Of a stretch of 7,015 nucleotides of DNA, positions 1-7,015 are shown in pieces. Both the position numbers and the translations under genes were made by a program. This DNA comes from an uncultured Gammaproteobacteria bacterium. Its GTDB lineage: Bacteria; Patescibacteriota; Patescibacteriia; UBA2591; UBA6264. Every line of letters starts with the position of its first letter. Position 1 is the first letter of the stretch. The stretch lies in the NCBI GenBank assembly GCA_964507075.1, contig CAZDOL010000014.1, forward strand, positions 5,094 through 12,108, in the 5' to 3' direction. The notes under the pieces are model-generated. The model did no database searches, was not told the DNA's origin, and saw only the letters and a program-made list of their open reading frames with translations.

Positions 1-36
1 TCGCTTTTTTATTTGGAGATAAAATTATTGATTTTT

Positions 37-555
37 ATGTTTAATAAGAAATATTCCAATAGCAAGGCTTTCACTATTATAGAAATGATGGTAGTTTTAG
101 GCATTACAGGTCTTCTGGCCGCTCTGTTAATAGCTAATATGCATTCTGGAGGAGAGGGAATGGATTTGACTTCTGAGGCGCAGAAATTAGGAGTGGTTAT
201 TCGCCAAGCCCAGATGATGGCATTGGCTGGTAAGCAAATTAATTTGAGCCGCCCGGCTTATGGTTACGGTGTTTACATTGCTTCCATGTCTTATAAGCTT
301 TTTGCGAATGATTATGATGGGGCTTCTTATTTATATGATGATGGTGATGATACAATCATTCAGTCTTTTTCTTTTCCCGATAATATAGAAATGAAGGTTC
401 CTGCAGCTGCTTTCTCTATTATTTTTACACCTCCATTAGGCGAGATAGAAGCTTCTGTTGCTCTTCCACTATATGTTACACTAACCCATGTGCCAATTAA
501 TTTAAGTAGATTTCTAAAAATTACTTCTTATGGAGAAGTTGATATTTATAAATAA
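37..555 (+). CDS. Prepilin-type N-terminal cleavage/methylation protein; GspH/FimT-FimU-like minor (pseudo)pilin
   Basis: The ORF track gives 13..555 from a TTG. The first ATG, at 37, yields MFNKKYSNSKA|FTIIEMMVVLGITGLLAALL: a short basic leader, F at +1, E at +5 and a ~20-aa hydrophobic helix, which is a class III (prepilin) signal. It has Ala rather than the usual Gly at -1. The following LTSEAQKLGVVIRQAQMMAL resembles the GspH/FimT helix. Stop is TAA at 553-555. The start is ambiguous (13 or 37). Confidence 0.8.
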   Translation: MFNKKYSNSKAFTIIEMMVVLGITGLLAALLIANMHSGGEGMDLTSEAQKLGVVIRQAQMMALAGKQINLSRPAYGYGVYIASMSYKLFANDYDGASYLYDDGDDTIIQSFSFPDNIEMKVPAAAFSIIFTPPLGEIEASVALPLYVTLTHVPINLSRFLKITSYGEVDIYK

Positions 556-1090
556 AAAAGGTCAGAGTTTAATTGAATCAGTGGTAGCTATTTCTATTGT
601 GGTTATTGCCGTGGTAGGCATTATGTCTGTTGGGTTAACCAGCATGAGTTTAGGTGGACAATCAGAGGAAAGGGTTGTGGCTATTAATTTAGCGCGAGAA
701 GGCATAGAAATTGTTTCTGCCACTCGTAATAGCAATCTTTTGGACCCAGAACAATCTTGGCCTTATGGATTAACCATTGGTTCATATAGGGTTGGATTTG
801 ATCTAGCTGGTTTAGTTATGGGTGCGGATGCTGAATTTGATGGAGGCACTACTGTGGAATATTGCACCAATTGTCGCCTTTGTCAGGATGCTGCTGCTGA
901 ATATTATTATCACAATGATAGTTGCTCTACATGGAGTCCTTTTTATAGATTAGTTGTTATTTCTGCTGGTGATGATTTGGGCGGGAATTGTGATGATTGC
1001 GAAAAAAAGATTATTTCTTCTGTTTATTGGGAAGAGAGGGGCAAAGCGCATACCATTAGCTTTGAAACTCGTTTTACTGATTGGAGATAG
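530..1090 (+). CDS. Prepilin-type minor pilin, PilV/GspI-like, Cys-rich C-terminal half
   Basis: MEKLIFINKKG|QSLIESVVAISIVVIAVVGI has G at -1, E at +5 and a hydrophobic helix. It overlaps the upstream gene by 26 nt, suggesting operon coupling. VVAINLAREGIEIV resembles PilV-type minor pilins. Six Cys lie at aa 112-157 (CxxCxxC...C...CxxC). Stop is TAG at 1088-1090. Confidence 0.8.
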   Translation: MEKLIFINKKGQSLIESVVAISIVVIAVVGIMSVGLTSMSLGGQSEERVVAINLAREGIEIVSATRNSNLLDPEQSWPYGLTIGSYRVGFDLAGLVMGADAEFDGGTTVEYCTNCRLCQDAAAEYYYHNDSCSTWSPFYRLVVISAGDDLGGNCDDCEKKIISSVYWEERGKAHTISFETRFTDWR

Positions 1091-1092
1091 AG

Positions 1093-1135
1093 ATTGGGTA
1101 ATTGGGTACCTAGGTGCTCGGGTAATCAGGTAATT
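1093..1135. repeat. G-rich repeat arm, copy 1 (attgggta x2 followed by gggtacctaggtgctcgggtaatcaggtaatt)
   Basis: Positions 1104-1135 are 30/32 identical to 2133-2164. Positions 1096-1122 are 22/27 complementary (ungapped) to 1513-1539. The arm lies between the ORF2 stop (1090) and the ORF3 ATG (1143). Confidence 0.85.
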
Positions 1136-1142
1136 AAAAATT

Positions 1143-2129
1143 ATGTCAACAGGTTTAGATAATTTAGAAATATATAAATTAGCTGAGAAGCTGGAAGTTT
1201 TTATTTATAAACTGAGTAAAAAATTTCCAGATGACGAAAAATATCGCACAGTTGACCAACTAAACAGATCATCTTCTGCTGTTTCTAACAACATTGCTGA
1301 AGGATATGGTAGATATTCTTTTCAAGATAAAATAAATAAATTTTATATTGCTCGAGGCGAAGCTGAAGAAACGCGGAAAGGTATAAACAAAAGCCATAAG
1401 AAAGGTTTTGTTTCTGTAAAAGAAGCTGATTTGTGTGATAAAAATTATACACAATTGATAAAACAGATTAATGCTTATATTAATTTTTTACGTCGTCAGC
1501 AAAATCCCAATCCCCAAGTACCCAAGTACCCAAGTACCCACAATAAGGGTTTCACCCTTATTGAACTTATGGTTTCTTTGGGTATTTTGGTTGTGGTTAT
1601 TCTTTCGGCTATGGGTATTTATTTGCGGGTAATTGGAACCAGAGAGCAATCTTTGGGAGACCTTAATATTCAAGAAGAAGGGCAATATATTATGGGTTTG
1701 ATAGTTAAGGATATTCGGGCTGGGCAGATTGATTATAGTTCTTATGTGGGGGATTTGGATGAGCCCGAAGATGATCTTATGCTTCTGGATTCTTCTAGCG
1801 ATGAGATTAGATACAAGAGTGATTTGGCTGGTAGTGGAAGTTGTACTCAAAATAGGTGTGTTTTAAAAAAATGCAAAGGACTGATTGTTGATGATTATTG
1901 TGACGATGATAATAATTATGAAGACATTACTATGACTGACATTAGTATTGAACGATTGGATTTTTATATCAACCCAACAAGCAATCCTTTCACAGCCGGT
2001 TCGGAAAGCTATAATCATCCCCATGTCACTATTATTTTAGAGCTTAAATCTTTAGTAGCAAAAAGTGCCACTACAGCTGAAGTCGTTCTTCAGCAAACGG
2101 TTTCCCAAAGATACACAAAAAGAAAATAA
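1143..2129 (+). CDS. In-frame fusion: four-helix-bundle protein (23S rRNA intervening-sequence protein / Avd-like family) + PilW/GspJ-like prepilin
   Basis: aa 1-~120 carry hallmarks of the four-helix-bundle family and its normal full length (LEIYKLAEKL..., SSSAVSNNIAEGYGRYSFQDKINKFYIARGEAEE, ...QINAYINFLRR). No stop follows. aa 121-135 (NPNPQVPKYPSTHNK) are encoded by a nucleotide repeat. Then comes G136|F137TLIELMVSLGILVVVILSAMGI, a textbook prepilin cleavage/methylation motif with E at +5, followed by QEEGQYIMGLIVKDIRAGQ (PilW/GspJ-like). No in-frame ATG/GTG/TTG exists between 1488 and 1551. Confidence 0.75.
   Translation: MSTGLDNLEIYKLAEKLEVFIYKLSKKFPDDEKYRTVDQLNRSSSAVSNNIAEGYGRYSFQDKINKFYIARGEAEETRKGINKSHKKGFVSVKEADLCDKNYTQLIKQINAYINFLRRQQNPNPQVPKYPSTHNKGFTLIELMVSLGILVVVILSAMGIYLRVIGTREQSLGDLNIQEEGQYIMGLIVKDIRAGQIDYSSYVGDLDEPEDDLMLLDSSSDEIRYKSDLAGSGSCTQNRCVLKKCKGLIVDDYCDDDNNYEDITMTDISIERLDFYINPTSNPFTAGSESYNHPHVTIILELKSLVAKSATTAEVVLQQTVSQRYTKRK
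1502..1540. repeat. C-rich repeat arm, copy 1 (aaatcccaatcccc + cccaagta x3.5)
   Basis: Its first 23 nt (aaatcccaatccccaagtaccca) are identical to 2236-2258. An 8-nt unit cccaagta is tandemly repeated at 1513-1520, 1521-1528 and 1529-1536, with a partial copy at 1537-1540. It is the approximate reverse complement of the G-rich arm. It is translated as NPNPQVPKYPST inside ORF3. Confidence 0.85.
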
Positions 2130-2132
2130 GTC

Positions 2133-2164
2133 GGGTACTTAGGTACTCGGGTAATCAGGTAATT
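2133..2164. repeat. G-rich repeat arm, copy 2
   Basis: gggtacttaggtactcgggtaatcaggtaatt is 30/32 identical to 1104-1135. It starts 4 nt after the ORF3 stop. Confidence 0.85.
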
Positions 2165-2205
2165 AGTTATTTATTAGAATAATTAGAATAATTTTACTAT
2201 GTCAT

Positions 2206-2967
2206 ATGTTATTAGATATATTTTTAAAAAAATTTAAATCCCAATCCCCAAGTACCCAATCCCCAAGCAACCAGTCTATCTCTTTAATTATCACAGTTCT
2301 TATTATTTCTTCTATTTTGGTTAGCACTATTACTGTTGGAGATGTTATGATTAGACATAGTCAAACAGTGAAAAGCTCTGAGGTTTCAGAAATTGCTTAT
2401 TTTGCTGCGGAAAGCGCTTTAGAAAAAGCGAGTTATGGAATTTTAAAGAATTACGATAATGTTTCTTCTTATACTTTAAGTGGCAGTATGACCAACACCG
2501 CGAAATACGAGGTTACTGATGTTAGTTTAGACAACAGGACTCCTTTAATTCCTTTTGAAGTGACCTTAGGAGCAGGCGAATCTTTTGAATTAGCATTAGA
2601 TTTTAATGGCACAAATATTTATCCACTAATTTTAAACATTGACCAAACAGCTTCTGTTTCAACAGATTTAATCATTTATGAATGTCTGACCATTGCTGTG
2701 CCTCCGCCTCCTCGTGTTTGCGATTCAGGATATACTCAGACATTTGTTTCTTCCTTGCCTTATAATTTAAGCATTTCAGAAGAGACAAAATATTATAAAA
2801 TTCGCATCAATAACTTGGATGCATCTGATTCAGAAACATATACCTTAACCCCAAGCGCGGACAATATTCCCGTAGGAGTTGACATCACTGCAAAAGGGGT
2901 TTATGGGGGATATGAAAGGCAAGCTAAGAGCAGTTTTCCCAAATGGCAGACTTTTGGAACTGACTAA
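2206..2967 (+). CDS. PilX/GspK-like pilus assembly protein (N-terminal TM helix, no Glu5)
   Basis: MLLDIFLKKFKSQSPSTQSPSNQS-ISLIITVLIISSILVSTITVG is a basic leader plus one hydrophobic helix lacking E at +5, as in GspK/PilX. The later SEIAYFAAESALEKASYGI resembles the conserved A-x-x-AE-x-G/A helix of PilX N-terminal domains. It is fourth in an H-I-J-K-like gene order. Stop is TAA at 2965-2967. The ATG lies inside the AT-rich spacer of a repeat pair. Confidence 0.7.
   Translation: MLLDIFLKKFKSQSPSTQSPSNQSISLIITVLIISSILVSTITVGDVMIRHSQTVKSSEVSEIAYFAAESALEKASYGILKNYDNVSSYTLSGSMTNTAKYEVTDVSLDNRTPLIPFEVTLGAGESFELALDFNGTNIYPLILNIDQTASVSTDLIIYECLTIAVPPPPRVCDSGYTQTFVSSLPYNLSISEETKYYKIRINNLDASDSETYTLTPSADNIPVGVDITAKGVYGGYERQAKSSFPKWQTFGTD
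2236..2268. repeat. C-rich repeat arm, copy 2
   Basis: aaatcccaatccccaagtacccaatccccaagc shares a 23-nt identical core with 1502-1524. aagtaccc (2250-2257) is the perfect complement of gggtactt (2133-2140). It is translated in ORF4 as KSQSPSTQSPS, a different reading frame from copy 1. Confidence 0.85.
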
Positions 2968-2996
2968 TAAAACTGCTGTTATTTTTGTTGTTTTTC

Positions 2997-3005
2997 TGAT
3001 ATAAT
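2997..3005 (+). promoter_or_regulatory. Extended -10 promoter-like box (TGaTATAAT) upstream of the small ORF
   Basis: ctgatataat matches TGnTATAAT exactly and lies 34 nt upstream of ATG 3039. There is no good -35. In an AT-rich genome such boxes also occur by chance. Confidence 0.3.
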
Positions 3006-3038
3006 AATGTTATTATATAAACATAATAGAGAAATAAT

Positions 3039-3338
3039 ATGTCTTTGCCTGGATTTTTACAATCATGTTTTTGGGATGTGGATTTTGATAAGCTGAACCC
3101 CCAAGAATATCCTTATTTTGTCATAGAAAGAATTTTAGAATATGGAAATAAAAAAGACATAGGTTGGTTGGCTAAGAATTTCCCTAAAAACACAGTTAAA
3201 GAGACAATTATTAGTTCTCGTTTTCTTAGCCCCAAAAGCACTAATTTTTGGGCTTTGGTTCTTAATTTAGATAGAGATAAGGTTTTATGTTTGAAAAAGT
3301 CATCAACGAAAAAACAAAACAAAATTTGGTCACATTAA
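3039..3338 (+). CDS. Small conserved hypothetical protein (99 aa)
   Basis: A clean ORF with its own upstream TGnTATAAT box and a downstream hairpin. The N-terminal FWDVDFDKLNPQEYPYFVIERILEYGNKKDIGWL...SRFLSPKSTNFWALVL looks to me like a widespread small protein family of unknown function. I recall it being catalogued as a DUF (possibly DUF6922) but cannot verify that here. The antisense ORF 3113..3322 is its shadow. Confidence 0.6.
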   Translation: MSLPGFLQSCFWDVDFDKLNPQEYPYFVIERILEYGNKKDIGWLAKNFPKNTVKETIISSRFLSPKSTNFWALVLNLDRDKVLCLKKSSTKKQNKIWSH

Positions 3339-3346
3339 CTAATCAG

Positions 3347-3378
3347 TGAAGTGTTGAAGTCAGACTTCAACAACTTTA
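3347..3378 (+). terminator. Stem-loop 9 nt downstream of the small ORF (possible terminator or processing site)
   Basis: gttgaagtc-a-gacttcaac (3353-3371) is a perfect palindrome. It is extendable, with one bulge, to 3347-3378 (~14 pairs). Only a short T tract (ttt) lies at its 3' side, so it is not a classical intrinsic terminator. Confidence 0.3.
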
Positions 3379-3396
3379 CGCAAATTACTTAGTTTT

Positions 3397-3451
3397 GGGC
3401 GATTTTTTGCCAAATCGGAAAATTGCCCTTAAAACCCACACGAGCAAGGGC
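3397..3451 (+). promoter_or_regulatory. Two mutually exclusive hairpins in the leader of the fibre gene
   Basis: Hairpin A pairs gggcgatttt (3397-3406) with aaaattgccc (3419-3428): 9 Watson-Crick pairs plus 1 G-T, with a 12-nt loop. Hairpin B pairs gccctt (3425-3430) with aagggc (3446-3451). A and B share 3425-3428, so they cannot form together. Confidence 0.3.
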
Positions 3452-3477
3452 TTTCAGAGCGTCACTTTTGGGGGACA

Positions 3478-3507
3478 GTCCCCTTTAATAAAGTCCCCTT
3501 TAATAAA
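3478..3507. repeat. 15-nt perfect tandem duplication (gtcccctttaataaa x2)
   Basis: Direct reading shows 3478-3492 identical to 3493-3507, ending 7 nt before the ATG at 3515. It is preceded by the palindrome ggggac-a-gtcccc (3471-3483). Confidence 0.9.
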
Positions 3508-3514
3508 AAGATTT

Positions 3515-6013
3515 ATGAATAACTCGCAAAATATAAAATCTTTGTTTTCTGAATTTAGTCGAGTTTGTTTTAAGTCAAAGTTTAACTTTTGGCTTTTTTT
3601 CTTTATTTTCCTTTTTTTATGTTCCAATGTTCCAATGTTCCAATGTTCTAATGTTTTAGCTTGGACTCCGCCACAAAGTCCTCCGCCTCAAGATAATGTT
3701 CCTCAGCCTTTGAACACAGGACCAACCGCGCAAGGCAAAACAGGCAGTTTGGGTATTGGCACAGATACTCCAACAGTAAAATTAGATGTTTTGGGGATTA
3801 TAGAATCTACTGGAGCTATTACCAGCGGAGGACGAATTACTGGTACTGAATTTTATGATTATCTAGGCGGTTATCTTGACCCTGGTTCTAGTGGTATATC
3901 TCTCTATGTTCTAGGTTCAATTACTGCCACTGGAACAACTGATGATAATTATTTTTTGGGTAACTTGGGAATTGGGACCACAGTTCCAGACACACTTTTA
4001 ACAATAGCCAATGATAATTGGATATCAGCAAAAGATAATGCTGGTACAAGCTATGTAAATATGTTTAAAGTTAATGCTTCTGATGAAATAGATGTAGGAG
4101 GAACTTTAAATGTTGGACCCATAGATTTAGCAGAAGATTCAGGAGCAATTACTCTTGTTAATCTGCCTGTGAGCTCAACTCCAAGTGATGGAGATATTGA
4201 AAGTTATGGTTTTAGCATTGATTCAAATCCCGTTTTAACAATTTATGGATTAGCAGATGGAATAGGAGGTGCTGACACGCATAGAATAGGTATTGGAACA
4301 ACGTCTCCGCAACACAAATTAGATGTTCGCGGTGAGGTTGCTGTTGGCGTGGCTGGCGCGACAAATCAAATTCATTTTGTTGCCGATCCTACTGCCGACA
4401 CAGACGTGGCAACAAAGGGATATGTTGATGGCGCGGGATATTGGGGAGTAACTGGCTCTTATCTTTATCCAACTAATCTTAATTATTTGGTTGGCATAGG
4501 CATTGCTACCCCGAGCGCTAAATTAGAAATTGATGGTGGTGTTCGCGCTTCAGAAGATATTATGACTGATACAGAATTAAAAGTTGGGGCGAATACATGG
4601 ATTGGCACTTTAAGTGCTCAGATTGTAGGGAATTTAGGATTGATAGATTCGGGTGATTTAACTGTAGCGGGTGAGGGTTTTTTTGATGGCGAAGGGGACA
4701 GTTATTTTTTGGGTAATTTGGGAATTGGGATTAGCGCGCCAACAAAGGGCAAATTAGAGGTAGATGGCAATATTGCTATTGGCGGTTCTAATAATGAATT
4801 AAGATTTTATGAAGGAGTAAATTATGTAGGTTTTGAGGCGCCCGCTTTAACAGCTGATAAAATATGGGTTTTACCAAGCATAGATGGCTCAAGTGGACAG
4901 GTAATAAAAACCGATGGCGCTGGAAATTTAAGTTGGATTAGCCATAATGGCTTAGATGGATTGGACGGCGGGACCACTAATGAATATTATCATCTTGATA
5001 ACACCGATTATACTGCTTTAAGTGACGCCAATGCTCAATTAGGAGATTTACAAACAGACGGTTCTCCAAGTTTTAATGGTTTAACAATTGGTACATTATC
5101 TGGGGTTTTAAAAGCAACAACGGGTGTTGTGTCTGGTAGTGCCACGATGGATGATATTGATGACGGGACAACTTATGTCAGAAGCCATAACGACTTCACA
5201 GATATTTATAAAGGATATTTAAACCAGGGAGTAAGAGATATTGATGACCCGATTTTTGCGGGGTTAACTGTTGATACTGATACTATTTATGTTGATAGTA
5301 CAAATCATTTCGTCGGTATCGGAACGACGGAGCCAGGGTATGAATTAGATGTTCAGGGGACGATTTATACTACAGGCTTTTATTTAAATGATGGTAATGC
5401 CACCGCAGGCAAAGTTTTGGTGTCCGCTAATACATCAGGGCTTGCCTATTGGCAAGCCCTTGGTACAATCTCTGGCATCACATGTGATGAGGCTGGCAGT
5501 TGTAGTTCAAATTATATTCCCAAATTTATTACTTCAAGCACTGTCAATGATAGTATAATTTACGAATCTGGTGGGCAAATTGGCATCGGGACTGTGATTC
5601 CACAAGCAAAATTACATGTTGACGGAAGCATTAAATCTACCAGTTTAGAAACAGGCGGACTTAAAGTAACAGATAGCCCAGGTCTTAATAAAGTTTTAAC
5701 TGATTTAGATGGAGCAGGCACAGCAGTTTGGACAGATGTTTCAGGTGGCGCTGATAACGATTGGGTAATAGTAGGCACAGATTATATATATAATTACGAT
5801 TCATTAAATAGAAGCGTTGGAATTGGGACAACGAATCCGGGAACTGCTAAACTGGCTGTTATGAACGGCAACGTCGGTATTGGCACGACAACTCCAAACG
5901 CAAAACTACAGGTGAAAGCTGCCGTTGCAGAGGCAATTGTTGAATTTACAGATGATGACGGCACTGATGTAATGCAAATTGATGCCAACGGCAATGTTAT
6001 AATTTCGTTATAG
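3515..6013 (+). CDS. Large secreted tail-fibre-like repeat protein (putative surface fibre/adhesin)
   Basis: The ORF is open from TTG 3395. ATG 3515 gives MNNSQNIKSLFSEFSRVCFKSKFNFWLFFFIFLFL...VLA|W, a signal-peptide-like N-terminus, then a Pro-rich linker (TPPQSPPPQDNVPQP). Nine copies of the motif (L/V)GIG(T/I)xxPxxKLxVxG follow, at ORF-track aa 119, 191, 297, 365, 441, 639, 728, 807 and 826. Three copies of G-x-V-(L/I)-x-x-D/N-x-x-G-x-x-x-W are also present (SGQVIKTDGAGNLSW, AGKVLVSANTSGLAYW, NKVLTDLDGAGTAVW). This composition is typical of phage tail-fibre-like and bacterial fibre proteins. Stop is TAG at 6011-6013. Confidence 0.85.
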   Translation: MNNSQNIKSLFSEFSRVCFKSKFNFWLFFFIFLFLCSNVPMFQCSNVLAWTPPQSPPPQDNVPQPLNTGPTAQGKTGSLGIGTDTPTVKLDVLGIIESTGAITSGGRITGTEFYDYLGGYLDPGSSGISLYVLGSITATGTTDDNYFLGNLGIGTTVPDTLLTIANDNWISAKDNAGTSYVNMFKVNASDEIDVGGTLNVGPIDLAEDSGAITLVNLPVSSTPSDGDIESYGFSIDSNPVLTIYGLADGIGGADTHRIGIGTTSPQHKLDVRGEVAVGVAGATNQIHFVADPTADTDVATKGYVDGAGYWGVTGSYLYPTNLNYLVGIGIATPSAKLEIDGGVRASEDIMTDTELKVGANTWIGTLSAQIVGNLGLIDSGDLTVAGEGFFDGEGDSYFLGNLGIGISAPTKGKLEVDGNIAIGGSNNELRFYEGVNYVGFEAPALTADKIWVLPSIDGSSGQVIKTDGAGNLSWISHNGLDGLDGGTTNEYYHLDNTDYTALSDANAQLGDLQTDGSPSFNGLTIGTLSGVLKATTGVVSGSATMDDIDDGTTYVRSHNDFTDIYKGYLNQGVRDIDDPIFAGLTVDTDTIYVDSTNHFVGIGTTEPGYELDVQGTIYTTGFYLNDGNATAGKVLVSANTSGLAYWQALGTISGITCDEAGSCSSNYIPKFITSSTVNDSIIYESGGQIGIGTVIPQAKLHVDGSIKSTSLETGGLKVTDSPGLNKVLTDLDGAGTAVWTDVSGGADNDWVIVGTDYIYNYDSLNRSVGIGTTNPGTAKLAVMNGNVGIGTTTPNAKLQVKAAVAEAIVEFTDDDGTDVMQIDANGNVIISL
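3619..3658. repeat. 8-nt tandem array (atgttcca x3, then atgttcta, atgtttta) inside the signal-peptide coding region of the fibre gene
   Basis: Units lie at 3619, 3627, 3635, 3643 and 3651. They encode CSNVPMFQCSNVL. The unit length is not a multiple of 3, and each unit carries an ATG, so ATGs fall in all three frames. Confidence 0.9.
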
Positions 6014-6032
6014 AAAAATAAAAAAACTGAAG

Positions 6033-6089
6033 TTGACCTCTAACGTTAACCCTAGAGGTTAACTAATCTAAGAGGTTAACTAATCTAAG
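6033..6089. repeat. REP-like hairpin element upstream of the RAYT gene plus 17-nt tandem duplication
   Basis: ttgacctctaacgttaaccctagaggttaac (6033-6063) forms a stem of acctcta (6036-6042) with tagaggt (6053-6059), plus a G-T pair 6035/6060 and a 10-nt loop. gaggttaactaatctaa is repeated at 6056-6072 and 6073-6089. The 18-nt core ttgacctctaacgttaac recurs at 6807-6824. Confidence 0.85.
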
Positions 6090-6107
6090 ATAAATTAGTG
6101 AGTTAGT

Positions 6108-6830
6108 ATGCGAAAAGAACAAATTTTAATAGATGATTTAGTTCATGTCTACAATCGCGGTAGTCGTAAAATGCCTATTGTTTATGATGAGGCTGATAAA
6201 TGGAGGTTTTTAAAAAGTTTATATTATCTCAATGACGAATATGCTCCTGCGAATATTTTTCAACATTTAAAATCGAATATACAACTTGGGAAATATCGCA
6301 ATTTTGAGAGACCAAAAGACTGGCCAGCTTCACGACCATTGGTTAAAATTTTGTCTTATTGTTTAATACCTAATCATTTCCATCTACTTTTAAGGAAAAT
6401 TACAGAAAATGGAATTAGTAAATTTATGGCAAGATTTAGCAATAGTTTTACAAAATATATTAATATTAAGCACGATATGTCTGGTAGATTGTTTCAATGT
6501 TCTTATCAGTCAAAGTTGGTAAAAACCGAAAAAATGTTATGGTACACAGATGCGTATATTCAAGTTTTTAACCCATTTGAACTTTATCCTGGCGGTTTGG
6601 AAAAAGCGACAAAAGAATTTGATAAAGCTTTTAAATTTGCTTTAGAATATCCGTTTTGTAGCTTAGGTGAAAGTTTTGGCAAAAGAAATTTGCATATTAT
6701 TGACAGAGATGTTTTGGGCAAGGTATGGTCTAATATAGCAGAGTATAAAGAATTTGCGCAAGAAGTTATAATATATTACAGTAATAGTAATAGAAAAGTT
6801 TGCAAATTGACCTCTAACGTTAACGTCTAA
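6108..6830 (+). CDS. HUH / Y1 single-strand DNA transposase-like protein (RAYT, REP-associated tyrosine transposase / IS200-like TnpA)
   Basis: It carries HVYNRG near the N-terminus and an HUH motif in YCLIPNHFHLLL (H90-F-H92, nt 6375-6383). It also has GRLFQCSYQSKLV and a catalytic-Tyr motif AYIQVFNP (Y150, nt 6555-6557). These are the conserved blocks of the COG1943/Y1_Tnp family. The stop (TAA 6828-6830) and the last ~8 codons (KLTSNVNV) lie inside the right flanking repeat. Confidence 0.85.
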   Translation: MRKEQILIDDLVHVYNRGSRKMPIVYDEADKWRFLKSLYYLNDEYAPANIFQHLKSNIQLGKYRNFERPKDWPASRPLVKILSYCLIPNHFHLLLRKITENGISKFMARFSNSFTKYINIKHDMSGRLFQCSYQSKLVKTEKMLWYTDAYIQVFNPFELYPGGLEKATKEFDKAFKFALEYPFCSLGESFGKRNLHIIDRDVLGKVWSNIAEYKEFAQEVIIYYSNSNRKVCKLTSNVNV

Positions 6831-6850
6831 GGTTAACCCTAGAGGTTAAC
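6807..6850. repeat. REP-like hairpin element at the 3' end of the RAYT gene
   Basis: ttgacctctaacgttaac-gtctaaggttaac-cctagaggttaac is the same element as 6033-6063 with a 13-nt internal insertion, in the same orientation. It contains the 10-bp palindrome acgttaacgt (6817-6826) and the 8-bp palindrome ggttaacc (6831-6838). The outer stem is 6809-6816 with 6840-6847. Confidence 0.85.
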
Positions 6851-6856
6851 TTCAAA

Positions 6857-6887: not shown

Positions 6888-7015
6888 ATGAAGAATAAGA
6901 AAAAGGTATTTATAACAGTTTTAATTTTAGGGCTATTAGCTGGTGGAGGATTAATATCTAACGCACTGAAACAATCTTCAGTAAGCGAGGGAGGATTGGT
7001 TGGCTATTGGACTTT
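6888..7015 (+). CDS. 5' end of a secreted/membrane-anchored protein, possibly LamG (concanavalin-like) domain protein; truncated by window end
   Basis: ATG at 6888 gives MKNKKKVFITVLILGLLAGGGLISNALKQSSVSEGGLVGYWT..., a basic n-region plus a hydrophobic helix. GLVGYW is the motif that commonly opens LamG-type domains (LVGYWxFDE). It is open to the window end and not in the ORF track because it is incomplete. Confidence 0.5.
   Translation, partial: MKNKKKVFITVLILGLLAGGGLISNALKQSSVSEGGLVGYWT

Follow-up and report, generated by a model that had tools for sequence, protein, structure and literature searches.

What does a protein built like a phage tail fibre do behind a set of minor pilins? The question is raised by a 7,015-nt stretch of DNA (the window, in what follows), in which the genes for four pilin-like proteins, here called P1-P4, are followed by the gene for a large secreted fibre. 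All genes of interest lie on the + strand, in the order 3' end of pilD, P1, P2, P3 (fused to an intervening-sequence protein, IVP), P4, DUF6922, AbiEii stub, fibre, Y1 transposase and start of a LamG protein (Table 1). An earlier note on this DNA had described the quartet, ascribed it to a candidate-phyla-radiation-type (CPR-type) organism and suggested that the fibre might serve as an adhesin. We read the window as an operon that encodes the minor pilins (priming/tip) of a type IV pilus in a Patescibacteria organism, together with a linked adhesin, a reading that we hold with slightly better than even confidence. Below, L-numbers denote related contigs or loci, and numbers such as P0149 or P0177 individual homologous proteins.

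The conservation of gene order carries much of this reading. Metagenome contigs were scanned with the P4 alignment, which yielded 36 loci with P4 identities of 32-83%, in which all open reading frames (ORFs) were mapped to the window proteins; further loci were taken from the context of fibre and P4 homologues. The order pilD-P1-P2-P3-P4-fibre, with an optional DUF6922 or DUF6922 plus AbiEii before the fibre, is present in about 22 distinct contigs with P4 identities of 41-83%. No counterexample was found among contigs with a P4 identity of at least 41% and more than about 0.5 kb of sequence after P4, and in L013 the fibre gene follows P4 directly with nothing between. The synteny of pilin quartet and fibre gene, which had been set beforehand as a test of the earlier proposal, is conserved yet clade-specific.

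A second line of evidence lies at the mature N-terminus of the fibre, which at 832 aa with a 49-aa Sec-type signal peptide agrees with the secreted same-strand protein of about 830 aa seen earlier. An AxA↓W/Y cleavage site (the arrow marks the cut) is kept in all linked fibres, and directly behind it stands a module with the consensus (W/Y)T(P/E)Pxx(P/S)PPxxN(V/A)xxP(L/I)NxGxxxQxKxGxLGIG, in which about 30 mature residues are near-invariant. Over 40 aa this N-module is 62-85% identical to that of the window, even at P4 identities of 41-47%; the linked fibres, which range from 603 to 2886 aa, are otherwise mostly unalignable. The module occurs in 11 of the 120 best fibre homologues, those of the 11 with readable context all adjoin P4, and it was found in pilin-linked fibres only. 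On reading the fibre sequence, no LPXTG motif, lipobox or C-terminal transmembrane anchor was seen. With a cleavable signal peptide and no visible anchor, the fibre would need a partner to stay on the cell.

In its build the protein is tail-fibre-like, and it is no prophage gene. PHROG tail-fibre families match it at E values of 1e-12 to 1e-15 at the level of its repeats (phrog_9942, E 1.1e-13; phrog_3269, E 2.6e-12). Many of its 703 homologues carry Peptidase_S74, Phage_T7_tail or DUF4183, and their common unit is the (L/I/V)G(I/V)GTxxPxxxLxV repeat; the fibre itself has no S74 chaperone domain. No Pfam family matches it at E <= 1, in keeping with the absence of PilY1 resemblance already noted, and the PilY1/PilC beta-propeller is absent by Pfam from this fibre and six related ones, a Sortilin/BNR insert being the sole match. 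With PilY1-type proteins the fibre shares the Sec signal peptide and the place after a minor pilin that lacks the usual glutamate at +5 (Glu5).

The opposite end of the fibre is where variation is concentrated in one relative. In L054, from the same sample series (349-4678), the linked fibre of 999 aa ends in an FGE-sulfatase/CLec domain that is the variable region (VR) of a diversity-generating retroelement (DGR). VR (3231-3350) and template repeat (TR, 3818-3937) differ with 13 of 15 mismatches at template adenines, and genes for bAvd and reverse transcriptase (RT) follow directly. DGR targets are ligand-binding surfaces. The location of this VR in the C-terminus points to a C-terminal binding end and leaves the invariant N-module as the likely attachment end, so that the polarity of the fibre, N-terminus attaching and C-terminus binding, is likely the same as in a phage tail fibre. 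The suggested adhesin role gains support from this C-terminal variable region. A second fibre-like gene often follows the first (L022:17287-20714, L026:17023-18214, L013:7830-9035); its product has a signal peptide and the motifs ..ARDFKVQ..FFFIEGDNGRVGIST.., and is without the WTPP module.

The pilin genes are largely as they had been described. They are consecutive and non-paralogous, the first two overlap by 26 nt, the first three have Phe or Gln at +1 and Glu at +5 (KA↓FTIIE, G↓QSLIE and G↓FTLIE, the last at nt 1548-1565), and the fourth combines a hydrophobic helix with Ile at +5. P1-P3 carry class III signals, with an N_methyl-type match in 20 of 20 P3 and 15 of 15 P1 orthologues. In P4 the cleavage region consists of a small residue at -1 followed by ISLIITVLIISSILV, and the Glu5-less helix is kept in 22 orthologues. 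A cognate prepilin peptidase is encoded directly upstream, pilD overlapping the start of P1. Mutual similarity among P1-P4 is restricted to the N-terminal helix, and each has a separate orthologue series in the related loci (P2 orthologues were found in all of them); the four are distinct families and not paralogues of one major pilin. The AlphaFold2 model of P3 (predicted local distance difference test, pLDDT, 92) shows pilin architecture, with a helix (9-63) and a six-stranded sheet, and that of P4 (pLDDT 88.8) a 59-residue helix (23-81) with a larger all-beta sandwich. Both high-confidence models display the long alpha-1 on an antiparallel beta-sheet that defines the pilin fold. The cysteines of P2 include CTNCRLC and CDDC motifs and are kept in orthologues, C112 and C115 being invariant, which points to a globular domain with disulfides or a metal site.

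The resemblance of the post-helix motifs to the H, I, J and K families, described earlier, is borne out for the first member only; the other three show matches over the N-terminal helix or none. In the case of P1, the PF12019 model of the GspH globular domain matches 5 of 15 orthologues (best E 2e-4) and TIGR01708 GspH matches at E 5.9e-7, over residues 11-64 only and with 29.6 bits against a cutoff of 80; P1 appears GspH-like with reasonable support. P2 matches PilV TIGR02523 (E 1.9e-4), ComGE (E 6e-4) and GspI (E 0.08), all under the cutoffs and in the N-terminal helix only. Among P3 orthologues ComGF matches 18 of 20 and gspJ 7 of 20, in the N-terminal region only, next to helix-level matches to ComGE, HpsC and GspI. 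Foldseek ranks one chain from the pseudopilus model of XcpGHIJK first for P3, as its sole pilin-type match (E 0.19, TM-score 0.45), and the GspJ crystal structures 3nje and 5bw0 are absent from the P3 matches. When family profiles were compared with PDB sequences, P1 and P3 matched over the N-terminal helix only, and P2 and P4 not at all. For P4 no Pfam or NCBIfam match (T2SSK, PilX_N, ComGG) was obtained in 22 members, and the PDB structures that Foldseek places closest to its model are jelly-rolls of the CBM4, GOLD and Asp types, every one with an E value above 1e-3; neither GspK nor PilX is among them. The predicted structure of P4 lacks the GspK fold, a pilin fold with an alpha-helical insert. 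Since it consists of a helix and a beta-sandwich, its K-type assignment comes down to its last place in the quartet and the missing Glu5. The H-I-J-K homology is partly supported, moderately for H, weakly for I and J, and for K through position and Glu5 loss alone. In the number, order and sizes of its members, the last of which lacks Glu5, the quartet works like H-I-J-K; P2-P4 are no more than putative members of the I, J and K families.

From these elements a mechanism can be modeled. The pilD gene would be translationally coupled to four distinct minor pilins, and PilD would process P1-P3 and probably P4 too. P1-P4 may then assemble as a priming complex that ends up at the pilus tip, by analogy with Myxococcus xanthus, where PilY1 and four minor pilins form a priming/tip complex (PMC7541494). 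A pilin without Glu5, whose long N-terminal helix bears a beta-sandwich, is expected in a tip-only position, and P4 would sit on top. The fibre, encoded in the clade-conserved equivalent of the pilY1 position, would be exported by Sec and lose its signal peptide, after which the N-module, our candidate pilus-coupling adaptor, might couple it to the P1-P4 complex, most likely to P4 via its beta-sandwich or the P3-P4 surface. The repeat shaft and variable C-terminal end would reach outward and bind the target cell, and pilus extension would move a long, exchangeable and sometimes DGR-diversified binding rod away from the cell. Display of the fibre at the pilus tip and docking through this particular end are both plausible.

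Several observations weigh against this model. P4 and the fibre gene lie 70-200 nt apart, often with a toxin-antitoxin module between them, an arrangement that does not call for tight translational coupling. In a deeper clade (L041-L047, with P4 identities of 34-40%) no fibre follows P4, and the genes found there instead (pth, CvpA-like, NrdD, methyltransferase) we take to be housekeeping genes. The extreme C-termini of the fibres also fall into a few conserved types, so that either end could be the anchor. P4 has no detectable similarity to GspK or PilX, and P2 and P3 resemble the I and J families via the N-terminal helix only. Moreover, many other surface proteins (LamG giants, DGR targets) are encoded nearby, and co-location in an 'attachment island' could thus explain the linkage without physical attachment.

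The alternative that survives best starts from this last point. The fibre would be an independent cell-surface or host-contact fibre, held by its conserved N- or C-end, and its linkage to the pilins would reflect a shared variable attachment island. The Y1 transposase, TnpB, toxin-antitoxin module, IVP elements, LamG proteins and DGR within 14 kb give the region such an island character, and both the interval between P4 and the fibre and the fibre-less quartet of the deeper clade agree with it. Even so, we consider it the less probable account, though one to be taken seriously: adjacency and order are strict in about 22 contigs despite heavy mobile-element traffic, the N-module is restricted to pilin-linked fibres, and a protein with a cleavable signal peptide and no anchor seen needs a partner.

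A further alternative, in our view improbable, takes P1-P4 as a short pseudopilus like that of type II secretion systems (T2SS) or Com systems, for which the fibre would be not a passenger displayed at the tip but a substrate to be pushed or assembled through cell wall or S-layer. P1 indeed matches T2SS GspH models, the top structural match of P3 is a T2SS pseudopilus model, no major pilin is present within the operon itself, and the linkage of fibre and pilin set is conserved. However, neither pilB/pilC-type genes nor a dedicated ATPase, platform or secretin were found within +/-10 kb of any locus in a regular-expression search; of the flanking genes that the earlier note proposed to look for, pilD is directly upstream, and pilB and pilC are missing from this interval. 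On the 658-kb contig Ga0376525_000002, two small N_methyl pilins, which are likely major pilins, are encoded together with a Wzy_C gene 4 kb upstream. The conserved module at the mature N-terminus also fits a docking adaptor, and T2SS substrates are not known to have a linear signal of this kind.

A more unusual observation than the fibre linkage concerns selfish ORFs embedded in the pilin leaders. Gene 3 is a single ORF of 328 aa (1143-2129), of which the first approximately 120 residues form the four-helix-bundle domain 23S_rRNA_IVP (PF05635, E 2e-26; TIGR02436, E 1.6e-25; PHROG Avd, E 2e-5), and the junction of IVP and leader in its product reads ..FLRRQQNPNPQVPK... This in-frame insertion had escaped the earlier note, as had the DUF6922/AbiEii remnant and the pilD end. 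Where short repeat-filled gaps had been described, the supposed P2-P3 gap is an interval of 461 nt of coding sequence, and the repeats are the inverted termini of the inserted element. P3 has no start codon of its own between 1143 and its cleavage site; an internal leader start was rejected, as after codon 105 (TTG at 1455, no Shine-Dalgarno sequence) no ATG, GTG or TTG occurs up to the cleavage site.

The termini of the element, L and R, are mutual inverse complements with an 8-nt period (inverted repeat I2, with 28-nt arms that are 82% complementary). In the predicted RNA fold, both minimum free energy and centroid, L pairs with R in a long closing stem (z -5.1). A PF05635 ORF bracketed by complementary stem-closing ends is characteristic of an intervening-sequence (IVS) type element; its location here is not an rRNA gene but the junction of P2 and P3 in a protein operon. 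The R terminus offers neither an ATG nor a stop in any frame, so that translation has to run on into the pilin. R is translated within both the P3 and the P4 leader, in the latter as part of a 'solo' L-ATG-R unit without IVP, where it is read in a different frame than before P3 (KSQSPSTQSPSNQ). Another solo unit precedes P3 in L022.

Comparison with related loci indicates how the element is distributed. The P3 orthologues of L007, L013, L015 and L026 have ordinary leaders of 12-30 residues and no IVP, from which it follows that the IVP of the window is a lineage-specific insertion. L023 and L052 carry the same IVP in fusion with P3, and L020 (94% aa identity), L031 and P0149 carry it in fusion with P4; in L020 the full IVP occupies the site of the solo unit in the window. 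In L048 the fusion partner of P3 is a distant IVP (36% identity), and IVP remnants with an internal deletion stay in frame in L034 and P0153. An exhaustive protein search, which detects fused cases only and is uninformative on frequency, added IVP::prepilin fusions to pilins of the P1, P3 and P4 types and to others, in at least 12 more representatives of 50%-identity clusters. All of these keep (G/A/S)↓FT(L/I/M)(I/V)E at the junction. The elements at the P3 site of the window and the P4 site of L020 share 92.9% DNA identity, whereas the flanking pilin genes share 76-80%, and dN/dS of the IVP is 0.05-0.08; we take the former contrast as evidence suggestive of mobility and the latter values as evidence suggestive of function. 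In L044-46, a GIY-YIG nuclease-like domain of about 90 aa stands in frame before the P3 site (L044:7086-7964 = P0177; ..RKSGAG↓FTLIELL). Other P3-type prepilins of CPR organisms (P0160, P0166, P0255) have leaders of 45-130 residues with recurring ..GGSALG..-like strings, which may be translated repeats or another inserted element.

The repeats themselves extend beyond this element. In a second element family, (ATGTTCCA)n supplies an ATG in every frame; its IVP ends at a separate stop codon in L037 and has become a pseudogene in L026. The 8-nt repeat in the signal peptide of the fibre has one copy in L007 and is longer by 24 nt in the window, in frame, and is also present in pilin leaders of relatives. 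Repeats of 8-nt period turn up occasionally in loops of other membrane proteins. The (AAGTACCC)n repeat has inserted, with the frame kept, into the genes for a Wzy_C-like membrane protein (..LVPKYPSTQVPKYPRA..) and for a GT2 glycosyltransferase (L022:233-264, L033:6899-6914), and can thus spread by itself into coding regions. Phase variation at these repeats was considered and is unsupported, the tracts being identical in six independent contigs of the population.

Our tentative proposal, whose chances we put a little short of even, is that IVS-type selfish elements (IVP, GIY-YIG) colonise the 5' ends of prepilin genes while keeping the host gene working, and that PilD cuts off the passenger. 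At its left end the element would supply stop codons in every frame, a site for ribosome binding and an ORF of its own, and at its right end a linker of 8-nt period that is open in all three frames, so that the pilin would be made as a selfish-protein::prepilin fusion. PilD would presumably cleave this fusion on the cytoplasmic side and free the passenger. The disposable leader could act as a safe harbour, a protein-level equivalent of IVS excision or intein splicing. Prepilins have an N-in topology, with which a folded leader of 135 residues is topologically compatible for insertion, though it is far beyond known leader lengths. In a survey of rRNA genes of CPR organisms, 23S_rRNA_IVP and GIY-YIG ORFs occupied non-intron insertions (10.1101/2024.02.27.582315). 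The elements described here resemble such 23S/16S rRNA intervening sequences (bioRxiv 10.1101/2024.02.27.582315) in their IVP and GIY-YIG ORFs and in the complementary termini that close a long RNA stem, and they differ in that they sit at the 5' end of a prepilin gene, with ORF and host protein joined in a translational fusion. No description of IVP-prepilin fusions was found in the literature searched.

Such insertions could also be read as signs of a decaying operon, in which the IVP has inactivated P3, repeats have disrupted P4 and fibre, and nothing functional is assembled. The mobile-element load is dense and the native P3 start codon has been lost. Nevertheless, decay is very improbable, as every ORF is intact and in frame, IVP::pilin fusions recur independently and remain in frame even after internal IVP deletion, all repeat expansions are frame-preserving, and the six sampled contigs are at least 99.98% identical. 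That the fibre gene is a prophage or phage-derived tail module unrelated to the pilins is hardly conceivable: despite PHROG tail-fibre matches at E 1e-13 and homologues with Peptidase_S74 and T7 tail-fibre domains, the window fibre has a Sec signal peptide and no S74 domain, no phage structural, packaging or integration genes occur in about 40 loci, so that it stands outside any prophage block, and a search with the fibre among 50,697 phage genomes gave two weak matches only.

Table 1. Coordinates of the features in the 7,015-nt window; the arrow marks a cleavage site, and D and I numbers denote repeats.
Feature	Coordinates	Strand	Details
pilD 3' end (prepilin peptidase)	1..44	+	last 14 codons 3-44, translation AFLFGDKIIDFYV then stop; stop 42-44 overlaps P1 ATG at 37
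P1, GspH/FimT-like minor pilin	37..555	+	172 aa; site KA↓FTIIE; N_methyl E 3e-6
P2, minor pilin, GspI/PilV position	530..1090	+	186 aa; site G↓QSLIE; 6 Cys; N_methyl E 0.007 (weak)
L terminus of IVP element	1095..1136	+	8-nt-period (GGGTAMTY)n, stops in all frames, then AGGTAATTAAAAATT-ATG; repeats D3, I2
IVP domain (23S rRNA intervening-sequence protein, four-helix-bundle, Avd-like)	1143..1502	+	no stop codon; in frame with P3
R terminus of IVP element	1502..1541	+	(AAGTACCC)n, open in three frames; leader translation QNPNPQVPKYPST; repeats D4, I2
Mature P3, GspJ/PilW/ComGF position	1551..2129	+	FTLIE start; 4 Cys; N_methyl E 2e-7
Solo L-ATG-R unit without IVP	2133..2274	+	L 2133-2165, R 2236-2274; holds P4 start codon 2206 and leader
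P4, Glu5-less pilin-like, cap position	2206..2967	+	253 aa; NQS↓ISLIITVL; hydrophobic helix
DUF6922 gene	3039..3338	+	PF21956 E 2e-17; intact
AbiEii toxin gene remnant	3287..3349	+	20 codons; 15/18 residues identical to start of L026 AbiEii
Fibre protein	3515..6013	+	832 aa; seven (L/I/V)G(I/V)G(T/I)xxPxxx(L)x(V/I) repeats; conserved C-terminal end ..DANGNVIISL
Sec-type signal peptide of fibre	3515..3661	+	49 aa, cleavage ..NVLA↓W; read from sequence
8-nt tandem repeat in signal-peptide c-region	3612..3655	+	ATGTTCCA/GTTCCAAT, ~4 copies; repeat D1
N-terminal module of mature fibre, candidate pilus-coupling adaptor	3662..3763	+	WTPPQSPPPQDNVPQPLNTGPTAQGKTGSLGIGT
IS200/RAYT-like Y1 transposase element	6027..6851	+	gene 6108-6830; hairpin-forming direct repeats 6027-6064, 6801-6851
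Laminin_G_3 surface protein start	6888..7015	+	936 aa in full; Laminin_G_3 E 1.6e-32

The genes around the pilins and the fibre are mostly mobile or surface-related. DUF6922 and AbiEii apparently constitute a toxin-antitoxin module with DUF6922 as the antitoxin-side partner. The pair lies between P4 and the fibre in L015, L026, L027, L030, L036, L038 and L050, with both partners intact in L015, L026, L027, L030 and L050. DUF6922 is truncated in L007 and L053, and in the window it is AbiEii that is cut, to 20 codons, so that no intact pair is left. The Y1 gene matches Y1_Tnp (E 5.5e-6) and, below the cutoff, REP_Tyr_transpos (E 1.3e-6), and is associated with repeats D5, D13, I1 and I10. Its flanking repeats contain GTTAACC..GGTTAAC hairpins; a 72%-identical copy stands after the fibre in L012, and other copies are located upstream of pilD in L018, L035, L048 and L052. 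In L015 (1194-2405), an IS605 OrfB/TnpB (Cas12f-like) gene lies on the minus strand between P3 and P4, a mobile element tolerated in the operon. Beyond the window, L001 (9919-13126) contains a complete DGR with a 301-aa FGE-sulfatase target, an RT on the minus strand and bAvd; VR (10705-10828) and TR (12432-12555) differ with 15 of 16 mismatches at template A, and the DGR looks functional. In L001 a 46-nt palindromic element is repeated behind the VR and close to the RT.

Exact protein matches identified 21 contigs from the same population, of which six were read and each is at least 99.98% identical to the window. The source samples are ERZ272489xx and JGI 3300028167/8. The longer ones show glycosyltransferases and radical-SAM enzymes upstream of pilD, the full pilD (250 aa, A24_N_bact plus Peptidase_A24; L002, L003, L005) and, downstream, the LamG protein, the 301-aa FGE-sulfatase protein, reverse transcriptase, bAvd and an NYN protein. 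The 30 P4 homologues are all Patescibacteria where named, four of them being called 'Patescibacteria group bacterium' by NCBI, and this naming supports a Patescibacteria/CPR host, as had been presumed. A pilD-anchored scan of GTDB genomes returned two close loci only, both on short contigs. The GTDB records of L007 and L008 (CAZTWG010000055.1, CAZNIO010000026.1) are titled 'uncultured Gammaproteobacteria bacterium'; their gene content is like that of the Patescibacteria-named homologues, and they are probably mislabelled bins. A promoter/terminator scan of the window gave no excess of sites over shuffled sequence, and Rfam and tRNA scans gave no matches.

Compared with known systems, the locus combines familiar parts in an unfamiliar way. 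Like FimU-PilV-PilW-PilX-PilY1 of the Pseudomonas/Myxococcus type IVa pili, it encodes four different minor pilins in one operon, the last without the usual Glu5, and behind them a large non-pilin protein that is secreted by Sec and presumably acts as an adhesin. Unlike PilY1, this protein has neither a PilY1/PilC beta-propeller nor a vWA domain (no Pfam match), but is a repeat-built tail-fibre-like rod of 0.6-2.9 kaa (thousand amino acids). Unlike the last pilin of PilX/GspK systems, P4 is a helix with a beta-sandwich and no detectable PilX/GspK similarity, and, in contrast to the FimU-PilVWX-PilY1 system, pilD heads the operon and the host is presumably a monoderm CPR organism without secretin. 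Streptococcus sanguinis and Caldicellulosiruptor, whose adhesins are considered below, are presumably monoderm too. With GspH-I-J-K and ComGD-GE-GF-GG the quartet shares order, sizes and a last member without Glu5, P1 matching GspH models and P2 and P3 resembling GspI, GspJ, ComGE and ComGF over the N-terminal helix. It differs from them in that no match exceeds a curated cutoff, P2-P4 have globular domains that cannot be recognised from sequence and the GspK alpha-domain is missing.

Other adhesin-presenting pili provide partial parallels. In Saccharibacteria (TM7x) the large-domain proteins PilX1 and PilX2 are proposed tip adhesins, PilX1 being described with a beta-jelly-roll (PMC11623550). 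In both cases the minor-pilin genes of a CPR pilus are accompanied by the gene for a bulky protein, and the P4 model likewise has a beta-sandwich, so that PilX1, likened through its published description only, may be the nearest published analogue of P4. In TM7x, however, the adhesin is a domain of a pilin-like protein, whereas here it would be a separate Sec-secreted fibre with its own adaptor module. In the modular pilin PilB of S. sanguinis an adhesin function is grafted onto a pilin (PMC8179133), and the tapirins of Caldicellulosiruptor are non-pilin adhesins encoded beside the type IV pilus locus (bioRxiv 10.1101/359786). The fibre is unrelated in sequence to tapirins and PilB domains and differs from them by its dedicated conserved N-terminal module. 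PilB does have a counterpart in part of the deeper clade, where P1 is a 734-aa modular pilin with DUF2341/LamG-type C-terminal domains (L044:4268-6472, L045:6244-8448). A P1 with such adhesin-type domains suggests that the pilin set is used for adhesin presentation. In L046:2982-5032 two separate ORFs take the place of this modular gene, one for a 273-aa pilin and one for 395 aa of LamG sequence. Phage tail fibres and Mtd-type DGR proteins, finally, have in common with the fibre the repeat shaft of PHROG tail-fibre families, the logic of N-terminal attachment and C-terminal receptor binding, and a DGR-diversified CLec domain in L054; unlike them, the fibre gene is cellular, encodes a signal peptide, is linked to pilins and has no phage context.

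Within the theme of minor pilins and tip adhesins, it is new that the PilY1 position is taken by a tail-fibre-like protein with a candidate adaptor module of its own; no description of one in CPR was found in the literature searched, which does not exclude its description elsewhere. To our knowledge, type IV pili are the sole appendage with genetic support in host attachment by CPR bacteria, and that support comes from Saccharibacteria alone. For the question of how ultrasmall CPR episymbionts recognise their hosts and keep hold of them, the locus offers a testable architecture, derived from gene context, in a lineage outside Saccharibacteria. The in-frame IVP and GIY-YIG insertions, for their part, suggest an undescribed niche for selfish genes, the cleavable leader peptide, and imply that the prepilin peptidase tolerates folded leaders of 100-150 residues. 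The architecture itself consists of a conserved four-pilin tip set and an exchangeable fibre with a fixed adaptor of about 30 residues and a freely varying distal end. If it is what it appears to be, the host range could be re-tooled through swap or mutation of the fibre while the pilus machine is kept constant, in the same way as phages exchange their tail fibres.

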